A stretch of DNA of 64,000 bases from Candidatus Omnitrophota bacterium (GTDB taxonomy: Bacteria > Omnitrophota > Gorgyraeia > Zapsychrales > Zapsychraceae): contig JADFYJ010000005.1 of NCBI GenBank assembly GCA_015233115.1, positions 86,359 to 150,358 on the forward strand, given 5' to 3'. The notes below the pieces were generated by a model. It ran no database searches, was not told the origin of the DNA, and worked only from the letters and a program-made list of their open reading frames with translations. A program made the translations under genes and the position numbers. Below are positions 4,497 to 46,165 of this stretch, piece after piece. Every line of letters starts with the position of its first letter. The first letter of the stretch is position 1.

Positions 4497-4565
4497 AGCA
4501 TGTAGCATATAGCATGTGGCATGTAGTGAAAACTTGCTACATGCCACATGCTATATGCTATTGCA
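4497..4565. repeat. paired repeat-array element (TACATGC/TAGCATG 7-mer type), compact palindrome between kdtA stop and lpxK start
   Basis: agcatgtagcatatagcatgtggcatgtag-tgaaaacttg-ctacatgccacatgctatatgctattgc. Confidence 0.85.
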
Positions 4566-5823
4566 AATAGTCAATTATCGCCGCCATAGTCCGGTCAGTC
4601 GCCCCGCGTCCAATCTCTAAAGTTTTTTTCGCCGCATCGCCTAATTGTGCCCTTAGTTTGGGAGATTTTAAAAGGTATTTGATCTGCACGCTAAGTTCTT
4701 CTGGATTCTTAACCCGGATAATCGCTTTTTGAGACAAAAAAAGAGTCATGACATCTTTAAAATTTTGGGTATTAGGCCCGACTAAAATCGGTTTTCCAAA
4801 CGCTGCGGGTTCGATCATATTCTGCCCACCCTTAGCGGTTAAAGACTTCCCCATAAAGACCAAAGTAGCCAAACGGTATAAAGACCGCAATTTTCCAATT
4901 ACATCGACGATTATGACTGAATTTGCCGGAAGGTCTTCGCCTTCCTTGTAACTGGAATATTTAATTGGCACAAACCCCTTACGTTTCATTAAATCAACCA
5001 GCTCATCCGCGCGTTCAACATGACGCGGTGTGATAATTAATCGAACATCAGGAAAATCAAAAGTTAAATCCTTATACACATCAGACAAAATATCTTCTTC
5101 ACCATCATGCGTGCTGCCGCCAATGATAAATTGATATTTAACCGGCAATTTCAAGTATTCTTCTGCCACATTGTCCGTAATAGGAGCTAAATCGAATTTT
5201 AAATTCCCACATATTTCAACCCGACCGCGGTCAACCCCCAAATCGCATACCCGTTGGGCATCAGTTGGAGACTGCATACAAAACCGCGCCACACAATTGA
5301 GAACTGGTTTCATCAACCACTTCGCCAATTGATAATGGCTAAAAGAACGATCAGAAATTCTTCCATTCACCAAAACAATCGGAACTTTTTTCTTCGTTAA
5401 AGCATAAAACAAATTGGGCCAAAATTCCGTCTCAGCCGAAATATAAATTCTTGGATTAACAATTTTTATAAATTTTCTAACAATCCAACTCAAATCAAGC
5501 GGCGCGTACAAAACCGTCACATTTTTTCCGATCAATTTTTGCTTTGCTAAATCATTTCCGGTTTTCGTCACAGTCGTCACAATTAAATGATGCTCAGGAA
5601 AACGGTTCCCAACCCGGACAATAAGATCGCAGACAGCCAAAACCTCTCCAACGCTGACAGCGTGAATCCAGATATTATTCGTCTTTTTAATTTTATTTCT
5701 GACATCCACTGGCATAACCCCAAAACGCATCTTAAAATCCGCATGCCATTTTTTCTTAATAAACAGCACCGGAATATAAGCAATCACAAATATCAAAAAT
5801 ATAAAATCGTAAAGAATAAACAT
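4558..5823 (-). CDS. waaA: 3-deoxy-D-manno-octulosonic acid (Kdo) transferase
   Basis: N-terminal TM anchor, IWIHAVSVGEVLAV..., EFWPNLF..., C-terminal GT-B half. KdtA/WaaA family. Confidence 0.9.
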   Translation of the reverse strand: MFILYDFIFLIFVIAYIPVLFIKKKWHADFKMRFGVMPVDVRNKIKKTNNIWIHAVSVGEVLAVCDLIVRVGNRFPEHHLIVTTVTKTGNDLAKQKLIGKNVTVLYAPLDLSWIVRKFIKIVNPRIYISAETEFWPNLFYALTKKKVPIVLVNGRISDRSFSHYQLAKWLMKPVLNCVARFCMQSPTDAQRVCDLGVDRGRVEICGNLKFDLAPITDNVAEEYLKLPVKYQFIIGGSTHDGEEDILSDVYKDLTFDFPDVRLIITPRHVERADELVDLMKRKGFVPIKYSSYKEGEDLPANSVIIVDVIGKLRSLYRLATLVFMGKSLTAKGGQNMIEPAAFGKPILVGPNTQNFKDVMTLFLSQKAIIRVKNPEELSVQIKYLLKSPKLRAQLGDAAKKTLEIGRGATDRTMAAIIDYLQ

Positions 5824-5837
5824 AAAATTCCTAAGCT

Positions 5838-6107
5838 AATAGTATGTAGTACGTAGTATGTGGTATGTAGCAAAAACAAAAAACAAAAAAATCGATGATA
5901 AAACTCTAACCACGCAAAAAACCTTTGTTAAAAAACATTAAATCGTTTTTGTTTGAAACACATTAAATATTAATTTTTATCTAATCCCGAATAATTTTTC
6001 GAATAATCATTTATATCTCTATACATTAAAACTGCATCTAAACATTTTTTTACGACACACTGCTTGCACAACAATCGCTTTTTCACCACATACCACATAC
6101 TACATAC
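5838..6107. repeat. paired repeat-array element (TACATAC type): L arm 5838-5877, AT-rich spacer, core caatcgctttttc 6072-6084, R arm 6085-6107
   Basis: L aatagtatgtagtacgtagtatgtggtatgtagcaaaaac; R accacataccacatactacatac. Between xerC stop and kdtA start. Confidence 0.8.
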
Positions 6108-6112
6108 TTTTT

Positions 6113-6973
6113 TCAAGCTCTCGGATGCGCCAAATCATAAATTTTTTTTAAACGGTCAGTTGTAACATGGGTATAAATCTGAGTTGTTGATAGATTAACA
6201 TGCCCTAACAACTCTTGAACCGCCCTCAAGTCCGCGCCCCGATTAAGCAAATGCGTGGCGAATGAATGACGCAAAACATGCGGCGATACATGTGAATTCA
6301 AGGCTGCTTTAACCACATATTTATTGACTATATTCCTTACACTCCGATCCGTTAAGCGAGTCCCTTGCTTATTTAAAAAAATCGCTTTTGCCGCTGAAAC
6401 CCTGCTTTTTAAATAATCCCGGATGCTTAAAATGGCTGTCTCTCCTAACGGAACCAACCTTTCTTTCTTACCCTTACCCGCGACTTTGGCCACGCCGCCG
6501 ATCATATCTACATGCTCCACATCAAGCCCTACTAACTCACTCACCCGCATGCCTGATCCGTATAAAACCTCAAGAATAGCCCGGTCGCGTTTATCATCGA
6601 TAGCCGCTATAGGCGCGCTTTCAATGAATTTCGTCATATCTTCTTCACTTAAAAATTTCGGCAGCAGCTTTTCTTTTTTAGGCGACATGAGTAAAGACGC
6701 CGGGTTACTTTTAACCAAACCCTCACGTTCCAAAAATCTAAAAAAACTCCTTAAACTCGACAATTTTCTAGACAAAGACCTGCTCTTAAAATTCAAAGTT
6801 CGCAAATGTGCCAAATATTTACGCAACAAAAGATAATCTACGTTATCAACCGCAACCTCGCCAATAAATCCAAAAAATTCCACTAAATCAATCCGGTAAT
6901 TCAATACCGTGTGCGGAGAATAATTCTTTTCAACCTGTAAATACGAAATAAACTTATCCACAAACCGGTTCAT
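6113..6973 (-). CDS. xerC: tyrosine site-specific recombinase XerC/XerD family
   Basis: MNRFVDKFISYLQVEKNYSPHTVLNYRIDL... N-terminal SAM-like domain; C-terminus RHSFATHLLNRGADLRAVQELLGHVNLSTTQIYTHV. The ORF-track N-terminal extension (to 7210) runs through a repeat element and is rejected. ATG at 6973. Confidence 0.88.
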   Translation of the reverse strand: MNRFVDKFISYLQVEKNYSPHTVLNYRIDLVEFFGFIGEVAVDNVDYLLLRKYLAHLRTLNFKSRSLSRKLSSLRSFFRFLEREGLVKSNPASLLMSPKKEKLLPKFLSEEDMTKFIESAPIAAIDDKRDRAILEVLYGSGMRVSELVGLDVEHVDMIGGVAKVAGKGKKERLVPLGETAILSIRDYLKSRVSAAKAIFLNKQGTRLTDRSVRNIVNKYVVKAALNSHVSPHVLRHSFATHLLNRGADLRAVQELLGHVNLSTTQIYTHVTTDRLKKIYDLAHPRA

Positions 6974-7083
6974 ATGCAATCCTTCTTTTAAAAGAAGCAT
7001 TATACTACAAATTATATTAATTAATAGATTTTGAAATAGAAATATAAGAAGAATAAATGAAGCTAAAATCAATCTAAAAAAAC

Positions 7084-7198
7084 TAGGGCCGTACAAACGC
7101 CACATTGCAATCAAATCCCAGAGCGAGTTTCCGTGGCGCCTCGCCACGGTTGTTTGAGCGAAGGATTTGATTGCAATGTGGCCGCAATAGGCCCACGT
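7084..7198. repeat. structured intergenic repeat, variant copy: 20-bp perfect inverted arms gccacattgcaatcaaatcc / ggatttgattgcaatgtggc around core cagagcgagtt-tccgtggcgcctcgccacgg-ttgtttgagcgaa
   Basis: Read from sequence between topA stop and xerC start. Confidence 0.8.
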
Positions 7199-7227
7199 AA
7201 TATAAATCAAAATTGAAATTTACAGAT

Positions 7228-9210: not shown

Positions 9211-9221
9211 TTATCGTCCTA

Positions 9222-10857: not shown

Positions 10858-10929
10858 ATATTTGAATCCCCTTAATTTTTAATTTTTAAATCATAACACA
10901 TTATTTGATATTTTGTCAAATTCGAATTT

Positions 10930-11030
10930 AAAAACAAATTTAAACTCGAATTTGAAATCGGAGAATTCTTATCATAATTTAAAAACAAATTTAAACTCGA
11001 ATTTGAATTCAAAGAATTCTTATCATAATT
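10930..11030. repeat. tandem direct duplication of a roughly 50-bp unit (2 copies) in the aroK / pilin divergent promoter region
   Basis: aaaaacaaatttaaactcgaatttgaaatcggagaattcttatcataatt then aaaaacaaatttaaactcgaatttgaattcaaagaattcttatcataatt. Each unit contains the palindrome aaattcgaattt. Confidence 0.85.
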
Positions 11031-11122
11031 AAAATACACATTTGATTTCAAATGGTTTTGACACTCAACTTATAATATGCCATACTTTAATTAAGCGAAA
11101 CAAAAACTTTGAGGAAATTAAT

Positions 11123-11554: not shown

Positions 11555-11610
11555 ATCTAAGCTTTCTTTTCTTTTACTTTTTTCTCGACTATCTTTCCCT
11601 CTGTACTTCT

Positions 11611-14808: not shown

Positions 14809-14871
14809 AAATTATGCTCCGCTTACAAAAAAAGATTAAACTAAAAACAAAAAAACGATAATTTTGTAACG

Positions 14872-14990
14872 GGCGATCAGGAGATCGCCCCTACGACCAA
14901 GGACGCAATGTCCGCGTAGTGCTGGAAACTCCGCGCGCTGTACAACAGCTAAATACATATTTTTTTTATTTCGTAGGGGCGATCTCCCGA
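14872..14990. other. leuA leader: two 27-nt GC-rich hairpins (gggcgatcaggagatcgcccctacga / tcgtaggggcgatctcccgatcgccc) that are reverse complements of each other and bracket a 65-nt spacer. Possible attenuator or regulatory RNA.
   Basis: Read directly from the sequence. Located 60-180 nt upstream of the leuA start on the transcribed strand. No T-box consensus seen. Confidence 0.4.
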
Positions 14991-15056
14991 TCGCCCGCAT
15001 CAATCGTTTTTAAATAAAAAACAAAAACAATAATGTCAAAATTATATCCTGATATC

Positions 15057-15092
15057 ATAAAAAAGACCATAGAAAATTCTATGGTCTTTTTA
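15057..15092. terminator. bidirectional intrinsic terminator
   Basis: ataaaaaa-gaccatagaaaattctatggtc-tttttatt. Perfect 9-bp stem with A-run on one side and T-run on the other. Confidence 0.6.
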
Positions 15093-15140
15093 TTATAGGC
15101 CGCTGAGACCGTGGCCTCACGTTTTTATCTTCAACAATTA

Positions 15141-15176
15141 CTTTTTTTAAAAAAGGGCGATTCGTGAATCGCCCCT
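15141..15176 (-). terminator. intrinsic terminator downstream of ilvC
   Basis: gggcgattcgtgaatcgccc hairpin followed on the minus strand by ttttttaaaaaaag. Confidence 0.65.
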
Positions 15177-15182
15177 GCGCTT

Positions 15183-15215
15183 GCCACATACCACATGCTA
15201 CATGCTACATGCTAT
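15183..15215. repeat. half element: R arm only (TACATGC type), directly after ilvC stop; a core-like catcaatcgttttt lies at 14998-15011
   Basis: gccacataccacatgctacatgctacatgctat. Confidence 0.7.
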
Positions 15216-15217
15216 TT

Positions 15218-16207: not shown

Positions 16208-16237
16208 ACTGTGTCCTTTCCGTGTTCAAATTTTAAA

Positions 16238-16350
16238 AGTAACAAAGTGACAAAGTAACAGAGTAACAAAGAAACAACAAAAAACGAACGTTTTTTTGCA
16301 TCAATCGCTTTTGTCTCTGTCACTCGGTTACTTGGTTACTCGGTTACTTT
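16238..16350. repeat. paired repeat-array element (GTAACAGAG 9-mer type): L 16238-16278, palindromic mini-loop aaaaaacgaacgttttttt, core catcaatcgctttt 16299-16312, R 16314-16350
   Basis: Between ahcY stop and ilvC start. Arms are mutual reverse complements. Confidence 0.85.
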
Positions 16351-16351
16351 C

Positions 16352-18924: not shown

Positions 18925-18965
18925 CCCGCCTTTCTTTAATGATGCATGTTATGAATATTTTAATA

Positions 18966-19364
18966 AGTAACAGAGTAACAGAGTAACAGAGTAACAGAGT
19001 AACAGAGTAACAGAGTGACCGAGTAAAAAACTAAAAAAGCGAATGAGTAAAAACGTCTAAGTAACAAAGTAACGACAAACTGAATAAAAAAGCTACTGAG
19101 TAAAAGCAGCTAAGTAATAAAACTCCAAAATAACAACGCTCCAAACTAACAGAAAAAATGAAATTGGTCAAAAAAAATATTATGATTTTTAAAAAGCAAA
19201 AAAACAATAAAAGTTAAAAAAAATTATCTTATTAAACTTACATCGTTTCTCTAACTTACCGCTTTATTCTCATCAATCGCCTTTTCTCACCAATCGCCTT
19301 TTTCTCTGTTACTCTGTTACTCGATTACTTGGTTACTCTTTGCTCTCGGTTACTTTGTCACTCC
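18966..19364. repeat. paired repeat-array element (GTAACAGAG type): L has 6 perfect agtaacaga units plus degenerate copies to about 19110; AT-rich spacer; two core copies (catcaatcgcctttt, caccaatcgccttttt) 19271-19303; R 19304-19364
   Basis: Between the nucleotidyltransferase 3' end and metK start. The R arm supplies the nucleotidyltransferase stop codon. Confidence 0.85.
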
Positions 19365-20090: not shown

Positions 20091-20110
20091 GCTCGATCCT
20101 TTCAAAAATG

Positions 20111-20194
20111 CGGTTTTTAGTTTTTGGTTGTTAGTTGTTGGTTATAAAAACTATCGTTTTTTCCAAAAACCAAAAACCATCAACAATCAACCAT
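20111..20194. repeat. paired repeat-array element (GGTTTTTGGTTGTT type): L 20111-20145, loop aaaaactatcgtttttt, R 20163-20194
   Basis: Between ptsI stop and nucleotidyltransferase start. Confidence 0.85.
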
Positions 20195-20197
20195 GAT

Positions 20198-22227: not shown

Positions 22228-22229
22228 TT

Positions 22230-24079: not shown

Positions 24080-24118
24080 ATAAGCAAAAAACCCTGAACC
24101 ATGTGAGGTTCAGGGTTG
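24080..24118 (-). terminator. intrinsic terminator after tRNA-Gly
   Basis: aaccctgaacc-atgtga-ggttcagggtt hairpin followed on the minus strand by ttttttgcttat. Confidence 0.6.
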
Positions 24119-24240: not shown

Positions 24241-24325
24241 TGACGGTTGATAGTTGATGGTTTTTGGTTTTTAGAAAAAACAATTGTTTTGATAACCAAC
24301 AACCACAAACCAAGAACCAAAAACG
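24241..24325. repeat. paired repeat-array element (GGTTTTTGG type) in the tRNA-Gly / tRNA-Leu spacer
   Basis: tgacggttgatagttgatggtttttggttttt-agaaaaaacaattgttttgat-aaccaacaaccacaaaccaagaaccaaaaacg. Confidence 0.8.
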
Positions 24326-24343
24326 TTAAATTTGTAAACCTAC

Positions 24344-24430: not shown

Positions 24431-24736
24431 AAAGTGACAAAGTAACAGAGTAACCAAGTAACAGAGAAAAAATAGAAAATTTTTATAAAAGACTAACAAA
24501 ACTAAAAAATAACTAAAGTAAAGCATAAGCAAAAAATAAAAAAACTTTAAAAAATTAAAACCGTTTTTTCTTATTTTGTCGCAAACGCTTTTTGGATATC
24601 GTTAATTATGTCTTGCAACCTTTTTCAGTCCGTTACCCTTTTCCCAGCCATCTTTTTTCAATGCTACTCGATGTCATCGCTTTGCCATCAACAGCTTTTA
24701 CTCTGTTACTTTGTCACTCGGTTACTCTGTTACTTG
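24431..24736. repeat. paired repeat-array element (GTAACAGAG type) in the tRNA-Leu / tRNA-Lys spacer: L 24431-24466, AT-rich spacer, core-like catcgctttgccatcaacagctttta, R 24701-24736
   Basis: Read from sequence. Confidence 0.8.
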
Positions 24737-26220: not shown

Positions 26221-26350
26221 AAGTATGTAGTATGTCGTATGTTATGAAACAAACAAAGCAACTTGTCCAGATGTTTTACATATTAATTTATTCGCTGTTT
26301 TGCACAAATCGCTTTTCACCACATACTACATGCCACATACTACATGCTAT
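26221..26350. repeat. paired repeat-array element (TACATAC type) inside the rpsB-tsf-pyrH-frr operon, between tsf stop and pyrH start: L 26221-26246, core caaatcgcttttc 26305-26317, R 26318-26350
   Basis: Read from sequence. Confidence 0.85.
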
Positions 26351-27631: not shown

Positions 27632-27779
27632 AAAACCTCCATTTGATTTGTTTCAACTTTATACCTTCTCCAAGCTTTTAGCAGCGTTGTTCCAGTATAA
27701 AATTGTTATAAATTGAAAATATAATCTGATGTGGGCGATAGTATATACAAAATTATTTGGTTTTTCAATAGTTATTTTT

Positions 27780-29576: not shown

Positions 29577-29588
29577 AAAAAAATTTAT

Positions 29589-29700
29589 ACGGTTTTTGGT
29601 TGATGATTTTTAGTTTTTAAAGAAAAGTTTTTTATCAAAAATCGCTTTGCCATCAAGGCCTTTTCTTTGTTACTCTGTTACACTGTTACTCTGTTACTTA
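29589..29700. repeat. hybrid element in the divergent msbA/lpxB region: L arm of GGTTTTTGG type (29589-29618), core caaaaatcgctttgccatcaaggccttttc, R arm of GTAACAGAG type (29667-29700). The two arms are not complementary.
   Basis: Read from sequence. Confidence 0.8.
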
Positions 29701-29928
29701 TTATTATATATTTAAGGGGCGATATTATCACACGGATTGACTTTTGTCGAGCCCTTTGTTACCATAAATGTCAGTAAAAAAAGAAGGGAGAAAAGAGACG
29801 ATAGAAAATAGACAAACATAAAAATAAAACCAAAACAACATAAAACAATTTTTTAAAATTCCGTTGATTTTATGTTACGAATTCGCTTTTTTATTTTTCT
29901 ATTTTCTATAATCATCAAAATATATTTT

Positions 29929-31116
29929 ATGCCATTCACAAGCGACCCTCAGAAAACTAAACACATATTTATTATCGCCGGCGAAGCATCAGGCGATATC
30001 CATGCCAGCCATTTGGTCGAAGCGATCAAACGCAAACAGCCATCCTGGCATTTTTCTGGACTGGGCGGAGAACATTTAAAAAATGCAGGTGTGCAAATTT
30101 ACGAAGATCTCACCCAAATGGCCTTTATTGGCGTCTGGGACGTGCTGATCCATTTCCCCCAAATCAAAGCCATATTCGACCGGACAATTCATCGCATCAA
30201 AAGTTCAGCACCAGATGCGGTGATTTTAGTTGATTATCCAGGATTCAACCTCCGCTTAGCTAAAAAAATTAAAAAGATGGGTATCAAAGTAATTTACTAC
30301 ATCAGCCCCCAGGTTTGGGCCTGGAAAAAGAAACGCGTTTTTTTTATACAAAAATATACTGATCGGATGATGGTTTTTTTCAATTTCGAAAAAGATTTTT
30401 ACGCCCAATTTGGCATAACGGTAGATTATGTGGGACATCCCCTCGTAGATATGGTGAAACCCGCCATAAAAGCGGACTTAATCCGTCAAAAATTATCCTT
30501 ACTGAGCGACCGTTTAACAGTAGGATTATTACCCGGATCCCGCCACAAAGAAATTGAATCTCTGCTGGATCCGATGCTGGCCGCCTGTCGAATTTTGAAA
30601 AAAAATTTTTCCTGGATACAATTTGTCCTGGTCAAAGCGCCAACGATATCCCGGGAACATTTAGAGAGTCATTTAAAAAACTATTCCGATCTACACGCCA
30701 AAATTTCGGAAGAAGGCAATTACAATTCCATCAATGCCTGTGACGTGTGCGTGGTCGCCTCGGGCACTGCCACGCTGGAAGTCGCCTTACTGGAAAAACC
30801 CATGGTCATTATCTACAAAACTAATTTTCTGACTTATATCCTGGGTAAAATACTCATTAATATCAAATTCCTGGGCCTTCCCAATATAATTGCCGGAAAA
30901 TCTATTGTCACTGAATTAATTCAAAACCAGGCCAATCCTCCCCGCATAGCTGCTGAAATCCGTTCAATCGTAACCGATGAAATAAAAATTGCCGGAATAA
31001 AATCGGAACTTAAAAATCTAAAACATAAGTTAGATCAAGGCGGGGCAGCCGAACGCGCGGCGGATATAGTAATAAAGACAATTTTGTCCGAAAAATGTGA
31101 CAATGTGACAATGTGA
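29929..31116 (+). CDS. lpxB: lipid-A-disaccharide synthase
   Basis: KHIFIIAGEASGDIHASHLVEAIK...LGGEHLKNAGV...VILVDYPGFNLRLAKKIKKMGIKVIYYISPQVWAWKKKR. GT19. The C-terminal residues CDNVTM-stop are encoded by a TGTGACAA tandem repeat. Confidence 0.9.
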   Translation: MPFTSDPQKTKHIFIIAGEASGDIHASHLVEAIKRKQPSWHFSGLGGEHLKNAGVQIYEDLTQMAFIGVWDVLIHFPQIKAIFDRTIHRIKSSAPDAVILVDYPGFNLRLAKKIKKMGIKVIYYISPQVWAWKKKRVFFIQKYTDRMMVFFNFEKDFYAQFGITVDYVGHPLVDMVKPAIKADLIRQKLSLLSDRLTVGLLPGSRHKEIESLLDPMLAACRILKKNFSWIQFVLVKAPTISREHLESHLKNYSDLHAKISEEGNYNSINACDVCVVASGTATLEVALLEKPMVIIYKTNFLTYILGKILINIKFLGLPNIIAGKSIVTELIQNQANPPRIAAEIRSIVTDEIKIAGIKSELKNLKHKLDQGGAAERAADIVIKTILSEKCDNVTM

Positions 31117-31172
31117 CAGTGTGACAATGCAAAAACGTTCTGCAGGGAAAAAGCGTTACATTGTTACTTTAC
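31094..31172. repeat. TGTGACAA 8-mer tandem array (4.5 units) plus inverted partial copy gttacattgttac between convergent lpxB and batE. Encodes the last residues and stop of both genes.
   Basis: aatgtgacaatgtgacaatgtgacagtgtgacaatg ... cgttacattgttactttac. Confidence 0.85.
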
Positions 31173-31926: not shown

Positions 31927-31959
31927 GCAAAATCCTTTCGAAAATCTATAACATTTTTT

Positions 31960-32042
31960 AGTTCATGGTTGTTGGTTTTTAGTTGTTGGGTATAAAATTA
32001 TTCTTTTTTTCCAAAAACCAAAAACTATCAACTATCAACCAT
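31960..32042. repeat. paired repeat-array element (GGTTTTTGG type) between batD stop and batE start; loop aaaattattcttttttt
   Basis: Read from sequence; the R arm abuts the batD stop codon. Confidence 0.85.
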
Positions 32043-33836: not shown

Positions 33837-33901
33837 AGTCTTAACCGTTGGACCACCGCGTCGGTGGACCAGGATCCACCGACGCGGAGGCCTGCATTAT
33901 T

Positions 33902-34882
33902 TTACCAGTCCTTCTCCGGCTGCCCCAAACCTTTGCCCGGATTTAAATTTAGTGTTCCTTTAGGCTCTTCATTATTTTGGTAGTCATTTAACAATGACTG
34001 AGGACTTTTCTGGCTCTGAGGAGCGTTCCCAGAATTTTTATCCTGGTCATTAGAATTATTTTTACCATCATCATTTTTATTTTGATCATTGTTGCCATTT
34101 TTACCATCATTATTATTCTTTTGATCATTGCTGTCACTTTTTCCATCATTATTTTTGTCCTGGTCATTCTTGTCTTTTTTGTCATCCTTATTTTTATCCT
34201 GGCCATTCCTGTCGTTTTTATCATCCTTATTTTTATCCTCGCCATTCTGATCCTGCTGACTTTTATCCTTCCCGCCACCATTACTCCCACCGCCACCACC
34301 TCCGCCTCCGCCTCCACCTCCCCCTCCACCGCCGCCACCTGAATCACGCTCACAAGACCCATCCTCGTTCCAATATTTAGACGGCATCTTCTTTTTTTTG
34401 TTCAACCGTTCAATTTCTTGTGTCATCAAACTTGAATTGTAAACCACGTCCTGATCATGTGGCGCAATCTTTAAAGCTTCCTGATATGATCCGATAGCGT
34501 CATTAACCAATTTTTTCGCGGCATCTAGATCACACCCTGCTTCTTTGACACGGGCCATCCGATAAAAAATATTACCGCGATTATAATAAGCCTTTTCCCT
34601 TATTGCAAAATTATCCGATAATAAAGCCTTATCAATATAACTTTTTGATTTATCAAACTCGGAAATTTTGTACAACGCTGTTGCCGTGTTATAATTCGCC
34701 ATGGCAGATTCCGGATCTTTCGCGACCGCGTCTTTGAAATACTCAACCGACTGCTCATACCGCCCCTGCCGATAAAGCTTATTCCCTTTGCGGAGATCCT
34801 TGGTCTCTTCATTGGCAAAAACGTTCACGCTTACACCTGCCAGGAAAAAAAATATTGTGAATATTATAAAATATTGTTTCAT
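33902..34882 (-). CDS. batC: BatC-like secreted TPR protein with 18-residue poly-Gly and an about 120-aa Asp/Lys/Asn-rich repetitive tail
   Basis: SP plus TPRs (YRQGRYEQSVEYFKDAVAKDPESAMANYNTATALYK...), then GGGGGGGGGGGGGGGGGG and DKNKDDKNDRNGQDKNKDDKKDKNDQ... encoded by imperfect tandem DNA repeats. Confidence 0.75.
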   Translation of the reverse strand: MKQYFIIFTIFFFLAGVSVNVFANEETKDLRKGNKLYRQGRYEQSVEYFKDAVAKDPESAMANYNTATALYKISEFDKSKSYIDKALLSDNFAIREKAYYNRGNIFYRMARVKEAGCDLDAAKKLVNDAIGSYQEALKIAPHDQDVVYNSSLMTQEIERLNKKKKMPSKYWNEDGSCERDSGGGGGGGGGGGGGGGGGGSNGGGKDKSQQDQNGEDKNKDDKNDRNGQDKNKDDKKDKNDQDKNNDGKSDSNDQKNNNDGKNGNNDQNKNDDGKNNSNDQDKNSGNAPQSQKSPQSLLNDYQNNEEPKGTLNLNPGKGLGQPEKDW

Positions 34883-34971
34883 GATCGCATTAACGTTTTT
34901 TTGCTTTTGATTTCTTTAATTATTAGCCGTGTTTTAAGTAAAGGCCATAAACAACGGTTACCCTATGCTTT

Positions 34972-36015: not shown

Positions 36016-36028
36016 AATATATAACTCT

Positions 36029-36127
36029 ATGGTTTTTGGTTGTTGGTTTTTGGTTGTTGGTTTTTAGTTGTTGGTTGTTGAAAACATTCTTTTTTCCAAA
36101 AGCTACAAACCATCAACCATCAACCAT
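36029..36127. repeat. paired repeat-array element (GGTTTTTGGTTGTTGG type, 3.5 units) between batA stop and batB start; loop aaaacattcttttttcc
   Basis: Read from sequence. Confidence 0.85.
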
Positions 36128-36146
36128 AAACTAAAAAAATTTTATC

Positions 36147-38654: not shown

Positions 38655-38688
38655 AATAAAAACAGTATATGAAAAATTAAAAACTATA

Positions 38689-38816
38689 ACCGCGTGCCCA
38701 ACCTCAAGGTTTGTGTTTAAACTGAATCACCGAGCGAGTTCAGCTCCGCTTAGGAGCTGCTGTTTGAGCGAATGATTTGGTTTAAATGCAAACCGCCTAA
38801 CCGCGCGCTTTACTGG
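38689..38816. repeat. structured intergenic repeat, copy 2 (full length)
   Basis: ccgcgtgcccaacctcaaggtttgtgtttaaactgaatcaccgagcgagttcagctccgcttaggagctgctgtttgagcgaatgatttggtttaaatgcaaaccgcctaaccgcgcgc between moxR stop and DUF58 start. Confidence 0.85.
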
Positions 38817-38840
38817 ACGATTCTTTCCCACTCATTGTTT

Positions 38841-39838: not shown

Positions 39839-39852
39839 ACGTTCTCCTTTTA

Positions 39853-40134
39853 AATAGTAACCGAGTAACAAAGCAACCGCGTAACAAAAAAACAGAACAA
39901 CATCGTAATATTTTGACAATACAAAAACATTAAATTTTAAAAAAATAAAACATAGATATGACGTTACCAATAAAATATTTAATAAAACGAATAAAAGTTA
40001 AAAAATATATTTTCAAAATATTTTCAAATAAATAACATAATTTTATTATTGCGATATCATCAACGCCTTACCAACATCGCTTTACCATCAAGCGCTTTTT
40101 CTCTGTTACTCTGTTACTCGGTTACTTTGTTACG
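39853..40134. repeat. paired repeat-array element (GTAACAGAG type): L 39853-39896, AT-rich spacer, triple core 40058-40101, R 40102-40134
   Basis: Between the stop of the 1095-aa gene and moxR start. Confidence 0.8.
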
Positions 40135-40136
40135 TA

Positions 40137-43100
40137 TTAATTAAAAAATACATCAACCCGTTCTACTTTACGGGAACGAATATCTAGTGCATATGGAGCA
40201 GTGAGCACCCCTGATTCTACAACGATCGGCTTTTTATTATTCATATACGTCAAATGGACTTCTTTAATTACAACCCGGTCTTTCCCATAGGTATTTTTTC
40301 TGCCCGGATTATGATATACCACGATCATGGATCCAAACAATGTAAACGCGTACGCATTTTTAGGAATTTCCACCATCCGCTGGTGGTTTAAACTGTCAAT
40401 ATAAGTCATCTCAGTTTTTTGTTCAGTAAAAATCCAACCCGGTAAAGCAGGACTAAATTCTAGCACTAAACCTTTTTTATTGTCAAGATAGAATGGTTTT
40501 TTTCCAACATTCATTAACATCCAAATATGCAGGAACTCCGCCGTGCTCCCCGATAAACGCGCCACAAACCCCTGGCCATGAAGATTAATATCTTGATGGG
40601 CGCTCGAAACCAAAAAGGATGAATTTTCCAAAATACTACGGCCATATACCTCCGGCTTCATAAAAGGCACCAACACCTGTTTAAAATTAGCGTAAAAATC
40701 ATCCGCTAAATCACAGCGCAATAACTCCAGCATCAACTTGTATTCCATATGTAGCCAGACGGATTCATTTTCGAGCCAACCAGCGGGAAAGACCCGGGAA
40801 CGTCCAATATCCGTCGAGCTGGAAGACAAATCCGCGTTCACTTTATACATCTTCAATTTTTTATCAAACAGGTCACTGCGTCGGACATCCTCATATAATT
40901 TCCGGGCTGAGTCACCTACTCCCTCTGTTCTTAACGCATGCACATAGCCTTCTAAAAACAAAGGCAGCCGGTGTAATTCAAATTTTTTGGGCCGAATTAA
41001 TTTTTTAGTTTTATCGATCAGCTCATATTCCTTAACTTCATGAAAAAAGTAAGTGGATAAAAATCCTTTTTCATCTTTTGCCAATTCAACGGCTTTAGTG
41101 GTCTTTGTTACAACCGCATTCAAAAAAGTCTTGATTTCTTTTAAAGTCATTTCCTGCTCATGACCTTGAATACCCTTGCGGACTTTCCCACGATAATGCT
41201 CTTTAATATCATTCGCTTTGGTCCAAAACGCCAAGGGGTTTGGTTCTAGTGATAACACATTTGTCAAACCTGAAATAAATGTGGCCAGCTCTTCGAAAAC
41301 CGTCACTTTGACTGTATCCGCTATACTTAACTCATTCACCGCATTGATTAAAAATTGCGCGAAGCGTTTGACTTCATAGGTCTCGCAGATTGATGAACCT
41401 AATAAGCCCGGCAAACCATTTAACGAATCGTACCAACTCGGTTTATCTGCCTCCATTTCAATTCCTATGTTACTAGGATCTAACGTCGCAACTTTATTGG
41501 CTAACAGGCAAAGCATTTTTACAAACAAATTAGTGCGATAAACAACACCGCCCCCATTCATAGTTTTGATCTTATGTTCAGCGACATCGCCGACTTCAGA
41601 CACTCCACCTTTGGCCACAGACGAATACTGCCTGACCCCTTTATCTGTCAGCACGTATCGTTTATCTCTAGGCAAAACATAGTGATCACTATGATAAAAA
41701 GAAAATTCTTTTCGATCAAACAAAACACCTTTGAGATCTTCCGGGTAAACACTCAAATAACTTTCAACCAAATCAAGATTATAAGCCCAATGGTCAATCC
41801 AAAATCCTTCGCCATGGTCAGCCATTTCATTTTTATGGCAAACTTCAAGAACCTTACCTAAAAATTCTTTTTTGTCGACGGTCAACTGAATATGATGCAG
41901 ATAAATAAACCGGAGAAGCTCTCCTGGTAAAAAAGATTTTTTTAGAAATTCGAGTAACTTCTCCTGATCCGAAGGCGCAGCGCTTCCGGCTAACACCGTC
42001 TTTATTTTTTCAACATCATTAACCAAAAAAGTCGTCCCTTTAATGATCAAAGGATTATAACCATCCGGCTGGATCAAATTAAGAAAATTCACCAAATGGC
42101 TGTCTTTAATGTCCGTGTTAAACCATACATCATTCCTGCGATTCTGGTTCACATCGCGGTAATTACCATTTCCCTGAGAATAAAATGTCGACGCCACAAA
42201 AAAATAATTATAATCACGTTCTAGATCACCATGTTTCCGGCTATAGACGTTGAAAGCCACGTCTCCGTCCGTTGTTTTTAAAGAAACGGGCAATCCGCCT
42301 CGTAAAATATTATCCAAAAATGTGTGCTGGCTATAAAGATCAAATTCAAGAGATGAGCTTTTGGTCAACGCGAAATTTTTTATCTGATCAATGAGCTCTT
42401 TATTCCGTGCGGCTTTTTGACTGATAAAATTTTCTCCTCCCACAACCTGCTGAACAATGCTGTTTAATTGCCCAACTTCATGAGCATATCCAAACAGAGA
42501 ACTAATCGTTTGTTCTCCTCCCGGTTCAATGACCGTGACCCAATGACTCATCGCCGACGGAGTCCGGTTGGCAGTCTGTTGTACCTCTGGAACTTTAAAA
42601 TCAGCCTTTAAAAATTCCGCGGGCGCGATGAAATCGTTACAATGATCAAATACAATGGCTGACTCAACCAAAGGCGGCAACAATACATTTTTCCCGCTTT
42701 CATTTTTAAAGCTAAAAAAGAAATTCCCTTCTTTAATCTCATTAACTTCCGGACGGTCTGCCACTTCCACATTCAAATGATAATAAGGTGCTTTATTGTC
42801 TAAATTTTGCACTTTCACCCAAGCCTCAACCGTACGGCACATATTTTTACTAACCCAATCATTAATCCCATACGGAATAATAACCGGCAAACCATCCACC
42901 ACTTCGATTTCGCGGCGCCTTGAACCCGTATTTTGAATGGTAACCCGGCGGACTAAACCAGCAAACGGCTCTTCCGGCAGTGTAAAATAATTAACTGTTA
43001 CAGTCATCTCCAAATCTTCATTTTTTTCAATGAGTGTCAAATCATGGGCCGTTATCGACATGGTCTGCGTGGTTTTATAATCCGTCCCTGGTAAAAAAGT

Positions 43101-43424
43101 CTGGAAAGGTTCCCAATAAATAGTTTTATCCGCATCTTTAATTTTAATAAAAGTTCGGAAGCCTTGCAACGAAGTCAGACGGTAAGATTTATTCGCGGGC
43201 TGAAATTCCATGATCGCTTTGTCTTTTGATTCAATCCCAAAACTAGCGATCCCCTGTCCGCGGTTGGTATAAAAAACCCACATCGGAATTCCCCAAAGTC
43301 CGGAAATTCCTGGGAAAAAATTACTGAAAGTTTTACTAAAATTATAATTTTCAATCAAAAAACTGCCATTATCCTGGTTTAAAAAATACCGTGCAGTTCT
43401 ATTCTGTTTGATCACTTCACTCAT
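40137..43424 (-). CDS. large (about 1095 aa) cytoplasmic protein, probably a glycoside hydrolase/phosphorylase-like enzyme (N-terminal beta-sandwich plus (alpha/alpha)6-type half; possibly GH94-like). Function unassigned.
   Basis: No signal peptide. Start MSEVIKQNRTARYF with RBS aagggcgaagg. Motifs YRDVNQNRRNDVWF and GFWIDHWAYNLDL. Size is comparable to 1,2-beta-oligoglucan phosphorylases. Family assignment is weak. Confidence 0.45.
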   Translation of the reverse strand: MSEVIKQNRTARYFLNQDNGSFLIENYNFSKTFSNFFPGISGLWGIPMWVFYTNRGQGIASFGIESKDKAIMEFQPANKSYRLTSLQGFRTFIKIKDADKTIYWEPFQTFLPGTDYKTTQTMSITAHDLTLIEKNEDLEMTVTVNYFTLPEEPFAGLVRRVTIQNTGSRRREIEVVDGLPVIIPYGINDWVSKNMCRTVEAWVKVQNLDNKAPYYHLNVEVADRPEVNEIKEGNFFFSFKNESGKNVLLPPLVESAIVFDHCNDFIAPAEFLKADFKVPEVQQTANRTPSAMSHWVTVIEPGGEQTISSLFGYAHEVGQLNSIVQQVVGGENFISQKAARNKELIDQIKNFALTKSSSLEFDLYSQHTFLDNILRGGLPVSLKTTDGDVAFNVYSRKHGDLERDYNYFFVASTFYSQGNGNYRDVNQNRRNDVWFNTDIKDSHLVNFLNLIQPDGYNPLIIKGTTFLVNDVEKIKTVLAGSAAPSDQEKLLEFLKKSFLPGELLRFIYLHHIQLTVDKKEFLGKVLEVCHKNEMADHGEGFWIDHWAYNLDLVESYLSVYPEDLKGVLFDRKEFSFYHSDHYVLPRDKRYVLTDKGVRQYSSVAKGGVSEVGDVAEHKIKTMNGGGVVYRTNLFVKMLCLLANKVATLDPSNIGIEMEADKPSWYDSLNGLPGLLGSSICETYEVKRFAQFLINAVNELSIADTVKVTVFEELATFISGLTNVLSLEPNPLAFWTKANDIKEHYRGKVRKGIQGHEQEMTLKEIKTFLNAVVTKTTKAVELAKDEKGFLSTYFFHEVKEYELIDKTKKLIRPKKFELHRLPLFLEGYVHALRTEGVGDSARKLYEDVRRSDLFDKKLKMYKVNADLSSSSTDIGRSRVFPAGWLENESVWLHMEYKLMLELLRCDLADDFYANFKQVLVPFMKPEVYGRSILENSSFLVSSAHQDINLHGQGFVARLSGSTAEFLHIWMLMNVGKKPFYLDNKKGLVLEFSPALPGWIFTEQKTEMTYIDSLNHQRMVEIPKNAYAFTLFGSMIVVYHNPGRKNTYGKDRVVIKEVHLTYMNNKKPIVVESGVLTAPYALDIRSRKVERVDVFFN

Positions 43425-43446
43425 CCTTCGCCCTTTCACTGTTATC

Positions 43447-44229
43447 TTAATTTGGATTCTTAAGCATTCTGAAATAATTATAATATCCGGACAATTTAAC
43501 AACCATTTCAACAGGAGTATGGTCACGGCTGCTTAAACGGATTCTTTTCAATTCATACACATCATGATTAAAGCGGTCTGATCCCCGATTAGTCGCGAAC
43601 GCGGCCTTAAACCCCGCTTCTTGAGTCATACGTTTGATCGGATCGCTAAACCCTCCTATAGGATAAGCCAGAAAATTTATCGGCGCTCCTAAACGCTCTT
43701 CAATTATCTTCTTGCTTTCAAAAATTTCCCGACGTTGTCCAGCAATATCAAAATCCAGTAAATACGCGTGACTAACGGTATGGCTTCCAAAAGCAATGCC
43801 ATTTTTAGCCATTTCCCTGATGTTAGATTCAGATAAAAAACTTTTGTTTTCAAACGCGGACGCGATCAAAAAAATGGTAGCCGGAATTTTATATTTTTTC
43901 AAAATCGGATAAGCATATTGATAATTATTATAGTTTCCATCATCAAAAGTGATGGCCACTGTATTATGCGGCATCTTGCTCCCCGCCTTGATCCTGTCGA
44001 CTAATTCAGTTAAAGTAATGACATTATAATGATGCTTGCGGAGAAAAGACATCTGCCAATCAAATTCTTCTGGAGAAACCCAATTGGGCGCTTGATGATC
44101 CAACACCTCAACATTGTGATACATCAAAACCGGGACAGTATATTGATCCCAAACCCAAATAAAAAATCCGCATACAGAAATAAATAATACGGCAATCCCC
44201 AACAAAATAATTTTAACTACTTTTTTCAT
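43447..44229 (-). CDS. polysaccharide deacetylase (NodB homology, CE4) with N-terminal membrane anchor
   Basis: MKKVVKIILLGIAVLFI... then ...AITFDDGNYNNYQYAYPILKKYKIPATIFLI...GSHTVSHAYL... Confidence 0.85.
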   Translation of the reverse strand: MKKVVKIILLGIAVLFISVCGFFIWVWDQYTVPVLMYHNVEVLDHQAPNWVSPEEFDWQMSFLRKHHYNVITLTELVDRIKAGSKMPHNTVAITFDDGNYNNYQYAYPILKKYKIPATIFLIASAFENKSFLSESNIREMAKNGIAFGSHTVSHAYLLDFDIAGQRREIFESKKIIEERLGAPINFLAYPIGGFSDPIKRMTQEAGFKAAFATNRGSDRFNHDVYELKRIRLSSRDHTPVEMVVKLSGYYNYFRMLKNPN

Positions 44230-44236
44230 TTTATTC

Positions 44237-44689
44237 CTAAACTGCAGACAACGCCGCTTTGACCAATTCACTAATCATTTTATTATCCGCACGCCCAGCG
44301 GCCTTAGCTACGACTTCTTTCATAATTCTTCCCATATCTTTCACCGTCACCGCGCCCATTTCTTTAACCACTTCCGCGACAATGATTTTAAGCTCATCTT
44401 CAGATAACTCCTGAGGCAAATATTTTTTTAATATCCCCATTTCCACCGTCTCTTTATCTACCAAATCAGGACGGTTACCCTGTTTAAATTGTTCGATCGA
44501 ATCCTGACGTTGTTTAATCTGTTTTTTAATAATAGCCACGACCTCCAAATCATCCAACTTTTCAACCCGTTTATCAATAATGACATTTTTAATCTGGGCC
44601 CGTAAAAAACTTAAGCATGAAGACGTGACAGAATTTTTATCCTTCATAGCTTGAACATAATCTTTTTGTATCTGCTGTTCTAAAAGCAT
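44237..44689 (-). CDS. yqeY: GatB/YqeY domain protein
   Basis: MLLEQQIQKDYVQAMKDKNSVTSSCLSFLRAQIKNVIID... 150 aa, typical YqeY. Confidence 0.85.
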   Translation of the reverse strand: MLLEQQIQKDYVQAMKDKNSVTSSCLSFLRAQIKNVIIDKRVEKLDDLEVVAIIKKQIKQRQDSIEQFKQGNRPDLVDKETVEMGILKKYLPQELSEDELKIIVAEVVKEMGAVTVKDMGRIMKEVVAKAAGRADNKMISELVKAALSAV

Positions 44690-44705
44690 TTTATACTCCT
44701 TTTAA

Positions 44706-44941
44706 AAGTATGTAGTATGCGGTCTGTCGTATGTAGCAAAAACGATAAAACCGTAAAAAATAAAACCAGAAAAACACGCTTATATTATGCCATAACAACC
44801 GCTGTAAAAAGCGATGACTGATAAAAAAATTTCACAAAAATTTATTCGTTTTTTAATAGATAATTTACTAATTACCCAACAATTAATAGTTTCCCAGTCC
44901 TTCAATTCACACCACATACGACATACGACATACTACATACC
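44706..44941. repeat. paired repeat-array element (TACATAC/TACGAC type): L 44706-44743, AT-rich spacer, R 44908-44941
   Basis: Between DUF167 stop and yqeY start. Confidence 0.75.
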
Positions 44942-45166
44942 ATTTTTAATTTCATTTATATTAATTGTTTTGTTTCGTGATTTCAATCCTTTTATGATCT
45001 CGATATTTGTCTTCCTGACATCATAATAATCCGCTAAAAAATCAATGACTGCTTTATTAGCTTTGCCTTCCACAGCCGGCGCAGTCAAATGTAATTTCAA
45101 CTGTCCATTCTCGTCCTTCAACAAATTCTTTTTAGCACCAGGGGTGACTTTAATATTTATAATCAT
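44933..45166 (-). CDS. DUF167 (YggU/UPF0235) protein
   Basis: MIINIKVTPGAKKNLLKDENGQLKLHLTAPAVEGKANKAVIDFLADYY... The longer ORF-track start would overlap repeat copy 3. Confidence 0.75.
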   Translation of the reverse strand: MIINIKVTPGAKKNLLKDENGQLKLHLTAPAVEGKANKAVIDFLADYYDVRKTNIEIIKGLKSRNKTININEIKNGM

Positions 45167-45175
45167 AAATTTAAT

Positions 45176-45257
45176 CCGCGTGCCCAACACAAGGTTTGTG
45201 TTTAAACCGAATCACCGAGCGCCTGCCTGCCGGCAGGCAGGAGTTCAGCTCCGCTTA
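45176..45257. repeat. structured intergenic repeat, copy 3 (truncated, with inserted palindrome gcctgcctgccggcaggcagg)
   Basis: Shares ccgcgtgcccaacacaaggtttgtgtttaaaccgaatcaccgagcg...agttcagctccgctta; ends at the ygjP stop codon. Confidence 0.75.
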
Positions 45258-46019
45258 CAATTCCGGTATCACCATCTCCCCCTGATGCTGTCTTAACCAT
45301 TTCTTCCGTTCGCGGTAATCGGGCATAAATGTTTCGACTTGCTTCCAAAAACGCGGAGAATGATTAGCTTCAATCAAATGACACAATTCATGCACTGCCA
45401 CATAATCAATAACTGCCAGAGGGGCTAAAACAACTTGCCAGTTTATATTAATAGAACGGTTTCCCTTATGGCAGTTTCCCCATACTCTTTTCTGAGTACG
45501 CACCGCTATGGTTTCAGGTTCGACCCCAATAATCCGGCTATAATGAAATATCCTTCCCCCCACAATTTCTTTAGCCTGCGCCTTATACCAATCAATCAAT
45601 AAATTACGGATCACCCCTTGAACCGCGTCTTTTGCGTCTCCCGCAACCTTAATATCCCATTTTACACCATCGAAGAACAGAACAGACCGACCTTCAGCTA
45701 TCTCGATAATCGACAATGGATATTTTGAACCCAAAAATAAAAACTCTTCCCCATGCTTGAATTCTTTGCTCCAACCCGCGCCACGCTGTTGAACTTCGGT
45801 CAATTTTGACCATATCCAATCCGACCGTTCGCGTATGAATTCATGGACCCCGTCTAATGAAACAGATACGGGTACCGACACTTTAACGCGGCATTGAGAA
45901 TCAACACTGATAGACAGACTCCTGCGTCTGGGGGAACGAGCTAAAGTATAATTCAGTTCTCCCTGAGGCGTTTTAACACAACAAGCCAGTTTGGCAACCG
46001 GACGAAAATATTTTCGCAT
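45255..46019 (-). CDS. ygjP: YgjP-like metal-dependent hydrolase (DUF45 / M48-like, HExxH)
   Basis: ...WGNCHKGNRSININWQVVLAPLAVIDYVAVHELCHLIEANHSPRFW... Confidence 0.85.
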   Translation of the reverse strand: MRKYFRPVAKLACCVKTPQGELNYTLARSPRRRSLSISVDSQCRVKVSVPVSVSLDGVHEFIRERSDWIWSKLTEVQQRGAGWSKEFKHGEEFLFLGSKYPLSIIEIAEGRSVLFFDGVKWDIKVAGDAKDAVQGVIRNLLIDWYKAQAKEIVGGRIFHYSRIIGVEPETIAVRTQKRVWGNCHKGNRSININWQVVLAPLAVIDYVAVHELCHLIEANHSPRFWKQVETFMPDYRERKKWLRQHQGEMVIPEL

Positions 46020-46093
46020 ATCTGTAACATACCAGAAACCGTAAACAAAAAAACCAAAAAGTAATAAAACTTTTTGGTTTTTTTATTTTATCA

Positions 46094-46165
46094 GGGCGGT
46101 TCGTAAACCGCCCATAAACAATCGCTTTTTCATTGTCACATTGTTACATTGTCACACTGTCACGC
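46094..46165. repeat. GC hairpin gggcggttcgtaaaccgccc, core caatcgctttttc, and R arm of TGTCACA type (attgtcacattgttacattgtcacactgtcacgc) after the PilZ gene stop
   Basis: Read from sequence. Confidence 0.75.

Follow-up and report, generated by a model that had tools for sequence, protein, structure and literature searches.

The junctions between genes in a 64,000-nt stretch of a Candidatus Omnitrophota metagenome-assembled genome (MAG) (GCA_015233115.1, contig JADFYJ010000005.1, 86,359-150,358 of the forward strand; hereafter the window) carry recently inserted elements, in which two arrays of short tandem units form the inverted arms of a hairpin. The observation is real and not an artefact. 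Elements of this kind are missing from a congeneric genome with the same gene order. We consider it fairly probable that they stem from a lineage-specific burst of non-autonomous foldback-type hairpin repeats at gene boundaries, which would act as intercistronic RNA stem-loops when transcribed. Here we describe the anatomy of the elements, the comparison with the congener that identifies them as insertions, the explanations that compete for their origin and effect, and their likeness to known repeat families.

Arrays, arms and core motif

Tandem Repeats Finder (TRF) detected 45 arrays of period 7-9 in the window. Non-coding DNA makes up 10% of the window and contains 29 of them (p=1e-18). In the region from 4.5 to 46.2 kb, 16 junctions, read by eye on the sense (minus) strand, hold arrays with units of 7 or 8 nt. 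Both arms are present at 12 of the 16 (E1-E12), and the other four hold one arm or a chimeric or truncated pair (Table 1). A preliminary description of this DNA had seen the complete layout of array, conserved core, spacer and reverse-complement array at 16 or more junctions; the arrays stand at that number, and the complete layout with a clear core is limited to six elements (E2, E3, E4, E7, E8 and E11). It had also named four arm families, and four there are: family a (GTAACAGA, period 8), family b (TAGCATG / GTATGTG, period 7), family c (GTGACAAT, period 8) and family d (GGTTGAT / GGTTTTT, period 7). The unit formerly given as GTAACAGAG with a period of 9 is in fact the period-8 unit of family a, and the former 14-mer consists of two 7-mers.

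An inverted-repeat search returned arm pairs of 24-42 nt that are 76-100% complementary, with 10-308 nt between the arms. When array pairs were counted by a TRF-based pair test with strict unit matching, neighbouring pairs were inverted in seven cases and direct in none. The whole element measures 70-400 nt and is composed, in order, of an A/T flank, an arm of ~32 nt, an A-run with the motif GAAAAAGCGATTGATG, a T-rich loop of 10-292 nt (20 to 250 bp in the preliminary description), a mirror motif and the complementary arm. The flanks (TTAAAA / TTTTAA) lengthen the stem outward. The mirror motif ATCG(N)TTTTTG stands before the second arm, so that the stem continues through the A-run and T-run. 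In families a-c the arm beside the upstream gene has about four units (~32 nt), for 7- and 8-nt units alike, and the core follows it; four units plus core is a module common to the three families. Whichever strand is read, the first arm is rich in G/T and the second in C/A. The arms are inverted copies at the level of single bases, and unit variants are mirrored in order (24/24 nt in E1, 21/21 in E7). Parts of the loops resemble decayed units or tandem T-rich heptamers.

Since every arm unit contains a stop triplet, the first (5') arms hold stop codons in all three frames; the second (3') arms hold none. Four genes take their own stop codon from an arm, namely kdtA (TAG at 4558-4560, the first triplet of the E1 arm), the nucleotidyltransferase gene (TAA at 19350-19352, inside the 5' arm of E4), lpxB (31114-31116) and the TPR-SH3 gene (31156-31158).

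The core motif GAAAAAGCGATTGATG has 14 matches at three mismatches or fewer in the window, all on the + strand, against 1.6 expected. Eight to ten copies follow directly upon the last unit of the arm beside the upstream gene, so the claim of a recurrent core holds. No copy is exact, the best having one mismatch; E1 and E12 have no core, and the four family-d elements keep only an A-run/CGAT remnant. Six of the 14 matches lie inside genes and are probably unrelated to the elements. In E4, E11, E7 and at 29634-29665 the core is itself a tandem unit of 14-17 nt, repeated two or three times. Within a comparison set of 1.5 Mb of loci from other genomes, the core is found once in the sister genome described below; the only other matches, a single one in each of two unrelated loci, are at chance level.

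Several readings of the core were tried and rejected. It does not behave as a -35 box, the spacing to -10-like hexamers varying among copies, nor as the start of a small open reading frame (ORF), since E3 has a hydrophobic ORF of 22 codons, E2 one of 35 codons, and the others stop after 2-6 codons. By eye it resembles the E. coli IHF consensus at seven of nine specified positions. No core copy matches the strict consensus WATCAANNNNTTR, and the reading as an IHF site was rejected; in the window as a whole this pattern is not enriched (7 found, 7.0 expected).

In two places the core abuts a GC-rich palindrome with a GTAG tag, one in the window and one in the sister genome. Palindromes of the form GGGCGATC-N4-GATCGCCC and relatives occur four times in the window (Table 1) and once in the sister (L105 19310-19330). 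The single core copy of the sister lies in the 5' untranslated region (UTR) of aroK and is followed by the palindrome and CTACGAAA (GTAG when read on the opposite strand); the same composite is present at 14977-15013 of the window. An inverted copy of the palindrome 74 nt away gives a REPIN-like doublet. The tag accompanies two of the four window palindromes, a partial fit to the published GTAG REP definition, and the palindromes at 15155-15174 and 46094-46113 adjoin unpaired arms. An unpaired GTAG tag beside a GC palindrome defines the largest REP super-family, for which RAYT transposases are the presumed mobilising enzymes (PMC3733652). The motif shared with GTAG-tagged REP-like palindromes would therefore point towards a REP/RAYT- or IS200-like single-strand mechanism. 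By this resemblance the composite is the sole lead to a candidate mobilising enzyme.

Table 1. Array elements and incomplete arrays of the window, with intergenic distances in the sister genome, followed by tandem-arm hairpins from other MAGs (positions within the named locus). MFE, minimum free energy.
Feature	Family	Positions	Strand	Parts and remarks	Junction	Distance, sister	Distance, window
E1	b (TAGCATG)	4497-4566	-	arms 4503-4526, 4537-4560; 10-nt loop; no core; 24/24 nt complementary; RNA MFE -41 kcal/mol, z -11.8	kdtA / lpxK		
E2	b	5838-6111	-	3' arm 5838-5876; core 6069-6084 (1 mismatch); 5' arm 6080-6111; T-rich loop ~200 nt; MFE fold closed by arm stem, z -5.7	xerC-like gene / kdtA		
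Unpaired 5' arm	b	14871-15214	-	arm 15178-15214, then GC palindrome 15155-15174 + T-run; core 14998-15013 abutting GTAG palindrome 14977-14996; inverted palindrome 14871-14890	after ilvC stop	69 nt, simple terminator only	
E3	a	16236-16348	-	3' arm 16236-16277; core 16299-16314; 5' arm 16315-16348; near-continuous hairpin of ~50 bp, MFE -43.9, z -8.0	SAHH / ilvC		
E4	a	18966-19363	-	3' arm 18966-19026 (7.6 units); tandem cores 19271-19286, 19288-19303; 5' arm 19304-19363	nucleotidyltransferase / metK (upstream of metK)	55 nt	425 nt
E5	d	20112-20196	-	~85-nt hairpin; GGTTGAT/GGTTTTT units	ptsI / nucleotidyltransferase	11 nt	92 nt
E6	d	24248-24326	+	opposite orientation	tRNA-Leu / tRNA-Gly		
E7	a	24431-24734	-	3' arm 24431-24463; core 24686-24701; 5' arm 24698-24734	tRNA-Lys / tRNA-Leu	12 nt	330 nt
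E8	b	26222-26349	-	3' arm 26222-26242; core (one deletion) ~26303-26317; 5' arm 26318-26349	tsf / pyrH	overlap	152 nt
Chimeric element	a + d	29591-29697	-	family-a 5' arm 29666-29697; two cores 29634-29665; family-d 3' arm 29591-29618	ABC-transporter 5' UTR		
Array with truncated partner	c	31092-31167	.	convergent junction; stops for lpxB (+) and TPR-SH3 (-); half core GAAAAAGCG on + strand, 31145-31153	lpxB / TPR-SH3	overlap of 4 nt	
E9	d	31957-32042	-		batD / TPR-SH3	overlap	116 nt
E10	d	36026-36137	-	longer 3' arm (7.3 units)	batA / batB	~8 nt (by reading)	131 nt
E11	a	39856-40133	-	3' arm 39856-39885; three tandem core-like units 40060-40101; 5' arm 40101-40133	1129-aa gene / moxR	18 nt	~250 nt
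E12	b	44707-44940	-	arms 44707-44736, 44914-44940; no core; MFE -70.2, z -6.8	upstream of yqeY		
Unpaired 5' arm	c	46094-46165	-	arm 46131-46165; core 46116-46131; GC palindrome 46094-46113	after PilZ-gene stop		
Omnitrophota L011		5370-5477; 20284-20345					
Omnitrophota L013		5315-5371					
Omnitrophota L044		1312-1439; 6805-6879					
Nitrospirota L065		887-942; 7554-7629					
Nitrospirota L077		13135-13213; 16817-16925					
Nitrospirota L043							

Recent insertion, placement and folding

The congeneric sister genome (GCA_015233195.1, contig JADFYE010000013.1; 37 kb read as loci L105 and L109) is the closest relative among 5.8 billion proteins, apart from the window's own genome. Its gene order is the same, its proteins are on average 79% identical in amino-acid sequence to those of the window (26 proteins), and its GC content (0.385 over L105) is similar. 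At 28 shared junctions the window has 12 array elements and the sister none. Where the window holds inserts of 85-400 nt, the sister genes mostly overlap or lie 0-18 nt apart, and the flanking coding sequence aligns up to sharp insert boundaries. The elements are therefore recent insertions. More distant Omnitrophota with the same gene order are also devoid of them, so that gain in the lineage of the window is the parsimonious reading. A test for remnants of the ancestral metK junction (55 nt) within the loop of E4 gave no significant result (p=0.07). The sister has intergenic foldback repeats of its own (e.g. CAGACTGTTGAAAAACGC...GCATTTTTGAACAGTCTG; L105 13383-13510 and 925-1070, L109 4940-5060 and 5640-5760). 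One of them fills the SAHH / ilvC junction, which in the window is the site of E3, and the congeners thus bear different hairpins at one junction.

Of the 18 tight junctions, those that measure at most 28 nt in the sister, 7 carry an element, and of the 10 longer ones 5 do. Uniform insertion per nucleotide is rejected (p=7e-5) because the tight junctions hold just 10.5% of the non-coding nucleotides; the frequency of elements scales per junction. In long junctions 0-16 nt separate the stop codon from the first arm and 15-40 nt separate the second arm from the start codon, with the Shine-Dalgarno (SD) site intact. That placement is not random, as the preliminary description held, is borne out by this close fit to stop codons and SD sites. 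It reflects either gene-boundary targeting or strong selective filtering.

The copies of family d (E5, E6, E9 and E10) align over their full length of ~85 nt, non-periodic detail included, with a mean column identity of 74%, and E6 does so only as the + strand. Being homologous throughout, with one copy inverted, family d is a dispersed repeat, as in MITEs and REPINs. We think that the elements were seeded by copying and that slippage reshaped their arrays and loops. The idea that genes are cassettes held between arms of the same family was rejected; it holds for kdtA and metK-SAHH and not for the others.

The sense RNA of every element folds below shuffled controls, with an MFE of -21 to -118 kcal/mol and z of -4 to -12; the predicted stems have 24-50 bp. 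In all six long elements the arm-arm stem encloses the entire element in the MFE fold, which upholds the earlier proposal of long hairpins. In these six and in E3 the antisense strand folds less stably than the sense strand, by 9-30 kcal/mol, and among arm mismatches in sense orientation G:T outnumbers A:C by 36 to 15 (p=0.005). The folding data fit a predicted RNA-level structure on the transcribed strand. A search against Rfam 15 passed only three tRNAs, and a permissive scan gave hairpin-like chance matches far below threshold. A terminator scan of the window did not call the arm hairpins, which are unlike a short GC-rich stem with a U-tract; a T-run follows the stem only in E7 (T7), E5 (T5), E3 and E12 (both T4).

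The preliminary description had offered hairpins that bracket intercistronic promoters as one possible function, and this does not agree with the comparison. The ABC-transporter promoter TCGACA-17-TAATAT with upstream TG (TCGACA..TGTGATAATAT) is the same at every base in the window (29722-29750) and the sister (L105 1062-1095), and ~137 nt are inserted in the window between this promoter and the ATG. The chimeric element at this site lies downstream, within the 5' UTR, and therefore does not bracket the promoter. Several other elements occupy sites where the sister has 0-12 nt and no promoter (tsf/pyrH, tRNA-Lys/tRNA-Leu, ptsI/nucleotidyltransferase, batA/batB and batD/TPR). A scan for the sigma-70 consensus found no more sites in the window than in shuffled sequence and was judged uninformative. 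In the sister, the ATG of the ABC exporter lies ~10 nt past the -10 box with no SD sequence, which suggests a leaderless or near-leaderless mRNA.

Origin and effect of the elements

In the explanation that we favour, the elements would have spread through the genome after its split from the closest sampled relative, copied by an enzyme that may be encoded elsewhere in the genome. Replication slippage would keep the arrays uniform and adjust their length. The surviving copies would be only those that landed precisely in the gap from a stop codon to the following ribosome-binding site, helped by the stops in three frames. Transcribed elements may then act as intercistronic stem-loops like REP, BIME and Correia hairpins; they could block 3' exonucleases, are candidate substrates of RNase III and, where a T-run follows the stem (E7, E5), may cause partial termination of transcription. 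They would uncouple adjacent cistrons and would not supply promoters. Several points weigh against this explanation. The material comprises one 64-kb window and one sister genome, and Pfam scans found no transposase or RAYT gene in the 64-kb window. No target-site duplication was seen at the eight junctions aligned to empty sites of the sister, several of which have a few ancestral bases replaced at the insert instead of duplicated. The loops of the long elements are T-rich and of low complexity and have no homology between copies beyond the core motif, so that a simple master-copy model fits family d only. The sense strand is G-rich throughout, and strand-biased mutation could therefore give the excess of G:T mismatches. 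Variation within family d is small (8 pair-breaking changes, 1 compensatory) and, as the changes mostly break pairs, offers no evidence of selection for pairing. All effects at the RNA level are ones that we infer.

Could the host itself have selected the elements as an expression architecture? They would then serve, for example, as a module for RNase III processing or insulation, or as a cistron-separating switch, spread via selection on expression and not by selfish copying. The frequency per junction and not per nucleotide, the uniform orientation of the core beside the upstream gene in 8-10 elements, the constant arm of ~32 nt from 7- or 8-nt units, the preserved SD sites and the favoured fold of the sense strand would all suit such a role. 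We nevertheless regard it as unlikely, since the congener runs the same operons without any element, half of the junctions have none, and the two genomes share conserved intrinsic terminators of the normal type (24090-24117). Family d includes an inverted copy, the arms of one chimeric element are unable to pair, three junctions are one-armed or have a truncated partner, and compensatory evolution is not seen in family d. Less likely than host selection is an undescribed bacterial foldback-transposon system, whose enzyme would target gene boundaries and install stop-bearing paired arms at stop and start codons, the arrays being made or resized during insertion; in a variant, the host would have domesticated it as a cistron separator. 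Its enzyme would perhaps be of HUH/Y1 type or another single-strand DNA enzyme linked to the core and the GTAG palindromes. Somewhat less likely again, yet a serious competitor, is growth in situ without any mobility, by slippage and intrastrand template switching at gene ends under a mutational bias of the lineage, the core arising by convergence or from a common seed. The very uniform arrays (six perfect units in the E4 array by TRF), the tandem repetition of the core and T-runs themselves, the low-complexity loops unrelated between copies and the lack of target-site duplications are in keeping with it. Polymerase slippage has been invoked to explain an excess of heptamer simple repeats (PMC4692102, citing Mrazek 2007), and similar tandem-unit hairpins with unrelated units occur sporadically in other Omnitrophota and Nitrospirota MAGs. 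It does not account for the non-periodic detail that the family-d copies at four unrelated junctions have in common over 85 nt, one copy being inverted, for a 16-nt non-repetitive motif that recurs at 8-10 junctions, or for inserts of 300 nt where the sister has only 0-12 nt as a seed.

That the arrays act at the DNA level as binding sites of a nucleoid-associated, IHF/HU-like or iteron-binding protein, with inverted arms that organise loops or supercoil domains, is improbable. The position and orientation of the core are fixed, BIME and Correia elements bind IHF (PMC2649163), and the inverted arrays of GTAACA 8-mers on the phage contig L108 stand in an origin- or operator-like setting. Four unrelated interchangeable units would however require four proteins or none, units repeated every 7-8 bp do not keep helical phase, base-for-base complementarity of the arms is unneeded for binding sites, and the IHF pattern is neither matched by any core copy nor in excess. 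An artefact of assembly or amplification is very improbable. The source is a MAG, the sole close relative is free of elements, and copy numbers of short tandem units are prone to mis-assembly. Yet the elements lie exactly between intact ORFs, keep the SD sites and supply in-frame stops; every junction differs in sequence, the arrays are shorter than a sequencing read, and comparable hairpin arrays occur in independent MAGs of other studies.

Setting in the window and relation to known systems

The window is a housekeeping segment of the chromosome of an Omnitrophota MAG. The minus strand holds nearly all of its genes, and the GC skew of the + strand is negative throughout. Pfam identifies lpxK, kdtA, an xerC-like recombinase, topA, dprA, aroK, pilD, aroE, leuA, ilvC, SAHH (S-adenosylhomocysteine hydrolase), metK, a nucleotidyltransferase, ptsI, a CofD-like protein, EIIA, frr, pyrH, tsf, rpsB, an ABC exporter, lpxB, the bat/moxR aerotolerance operon and giant proteins; there are three tRNA genes, and MetK is 83% identical to that of Omnitrophota MAGs. 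The giant ORFs lie at 40137-43526 (1129 aa), 49430-54307 (1625 aa) and 54366-63536 (3056 aa). In Pfam the 1129-aa protein has no match and the 1625-aa protein TPR-type matches only. Array elements are present neither between the 1625- and 3056-aa ORFs nor upstream of them.

Other repeats are found in the window as well. A second dispersed repeat, unrelated to the arrays, has the form ..ACCGAGCGAGTT-[7-8 bp GC hairpin]-CTGTTTGAGCGAATGATTTGGT.. within a foldback of ~110 nt (GTTTAAAC..GGTTTAAA); its four copies (1375-1430, 7118-7170, 38690-38830 and 45176-45254) are all in array-free junctions. The batC / batD junction, 4 nt long in the sister, is filled by a GC-rich hairpin of 13 bp (33856-33887; CCGCGTCGGTGGA..TCCACCGACGCGG), which is a third type of lineage-specific junction insert. 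A 51-nt tandem repeat (10925-11043; 2.3 copies, 91% match) is found where aroK and a type IV pilin-like gene diverge, next to a promoter-like TTGACA-17-TGTTATGAT (~10888-10917). In the TPR (batC-like) gene, a 39-nt repeat in 5.5 copies and a run of CCGCCT hexamers (34034-34247 and 34286-34339) are coding and unrelated to the arrays.

Intergenic heptamer arrays in general are without an accepted origin or function. The pair of congeners, with the same gene order and 12 against 0 elements, provides dated empty sites for such elements. It also reveals that a bacterium tolerates hairpin inserts of 85-400 nt inside tight operons and between tRNA genes. If their placement is due to targeting, it would represent a new insertion specificity; if it is due to selection, this would suggest that arrays with stops in three frames and hairpins can separate cistrons at little cost. 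The elements are also testable candidates for transcript processing signals in Omnitrophota. The recent insertion, the dispersed nature of family d and the core shared with GTAG-tagged REP-like palindromes go beyond what the preliminary description contained, as does the precedent of paired inverted heptamer arrays in Xanthomonas (PMC4692102).

A literature search for published work on intergenic repeats of Omnitrophota found nothing relevant. Hairpins with tandem 7-8 nt arms were found in the comparison set, with ten inverted and two direct pairs and no core, at a density below that of the window (Omnitrophota and Nitrospirota loci; Table 1). They mostly have short loops with the G-rich arm first, and several of their units contain GTAAC or GTGAC. 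As these units are unrelated and coreless, the architecture seems to arise repeatedly. The phage contig L108 encodes a Dda-like helicase and both the small and the large terminase. Its inverted arrays of 8-mers that contain GTAACA (GTAACAGA, GTAACAAT), at 3031-3071 and 3343-3390, flank a divergent intergenic region of ~270 nt beside the helicase gene and have almost the units of families a and c. These arrays could be an origin, an operator or the same kind of element. Readings of the window elements as attC sites, CRISPR, uptake sequences or Chi/KOPS were rejected on anatomy. As to integron attC, the arm units fit by eye neither RYYYAAC nor GTTRRRY, and the flanked genes are housekeeping genes whose order is conserved across Omnitrophota.

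Two kinds of heptamer array come close to the elements. Xanthomonas genomes each contain 70-75 convergent pairs of GGGAATC arrays, capable of stem-loops and near ORF ends (Rehm et al. 2015, PMC4692102). As in the window, these tandem 7-nt units are almost exclusively intergenic and paired, and their length varies between related species. Theirs is however one G-rich, quadruplex-forming unit at positions largely conserved between species, whereas the window has four non-G4 families with a subterminal motif and a stop triplet in each unit, absent from the congener. Beggiatoaceae, Cyanobacteria and Bacteroidetes have arrays of the heptamer TAACTGA immediately before start codons; these arrays contain stops in all frames and were proposed to regulate translation (MacGregor 2015, PMC4679880). 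They too are intergenic, with 2-6 heptamers that often stand a few nt before the starts of genes that include housekeeping genes, and their stops in all frames limit gene overlap; they are direct (only one indirect case was reported), with other unit sequences and no partner arm, hairpin or core. By TRF consensus, none of the window units equals GGGAATC, TAACTGA or an STRR unit. The STRR heptamers of cyanobacteria, reportedly described by Mazel in 1990, are older examples of intergenic heptamer arrays.

Among palindromic repeats, the preliminary description could not match the array elements to the classical REP/BIME, Correia or RPE families, and they are indeed not members of these. REPs, which occur downstream of ORFs, probably act at the RNA level (PMC3733652). 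With REP, BIME and REPIN sequences the elements have in common that they are extragenic palindromes, for the most part downstream of co-directional ORFs and frequently in inverted pairs that form larger hairpins, without target-site duplication and probably transcribed (PMC3733652, PMC3116915); those families have GC-rich stems of 20-40 bp and no tandem units, whereas the array elements are AT-rich and without a GTAG/CGTC tag. MITEs are matched in small size and terminal inverted repeats; similarity of copies along their entire length is seen in family d and not in the long elements, and target-site duplications are wanting at the eight aligned junctions. The Foldback transposons of eukaryotes (Drosophila FB, Galileo, Tetris; PMC4079207, PMC4168063) likewise have terminal inverted repeats of tandem units with variable arms and loop. 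They are of kilobase scale, with target-site duplications and known transposase superfamilies, and the likeness is architectural, with no evolutionary link. Correia elements (NEMIS) of Neisseria possess inverted repeats around a conserved core, are present in hundreds of copies at gene junctions, bind IHF and RNase III, the latter of which can also cut their transcribed hairpins, and can alter the expression of neighbouring genes (PMC2649163). Their fixed terminal repeats of 26 bp, TA duplication, IHF site and promoter-forming ends were not seen here; they are nonetheless the best model of a possible mode of action of the present elements. The elements combine features of several known families and are members of none, and they unite in a single element palindromic intergenic repeats and heptamer arrays, which have hitherto been treated as separate.

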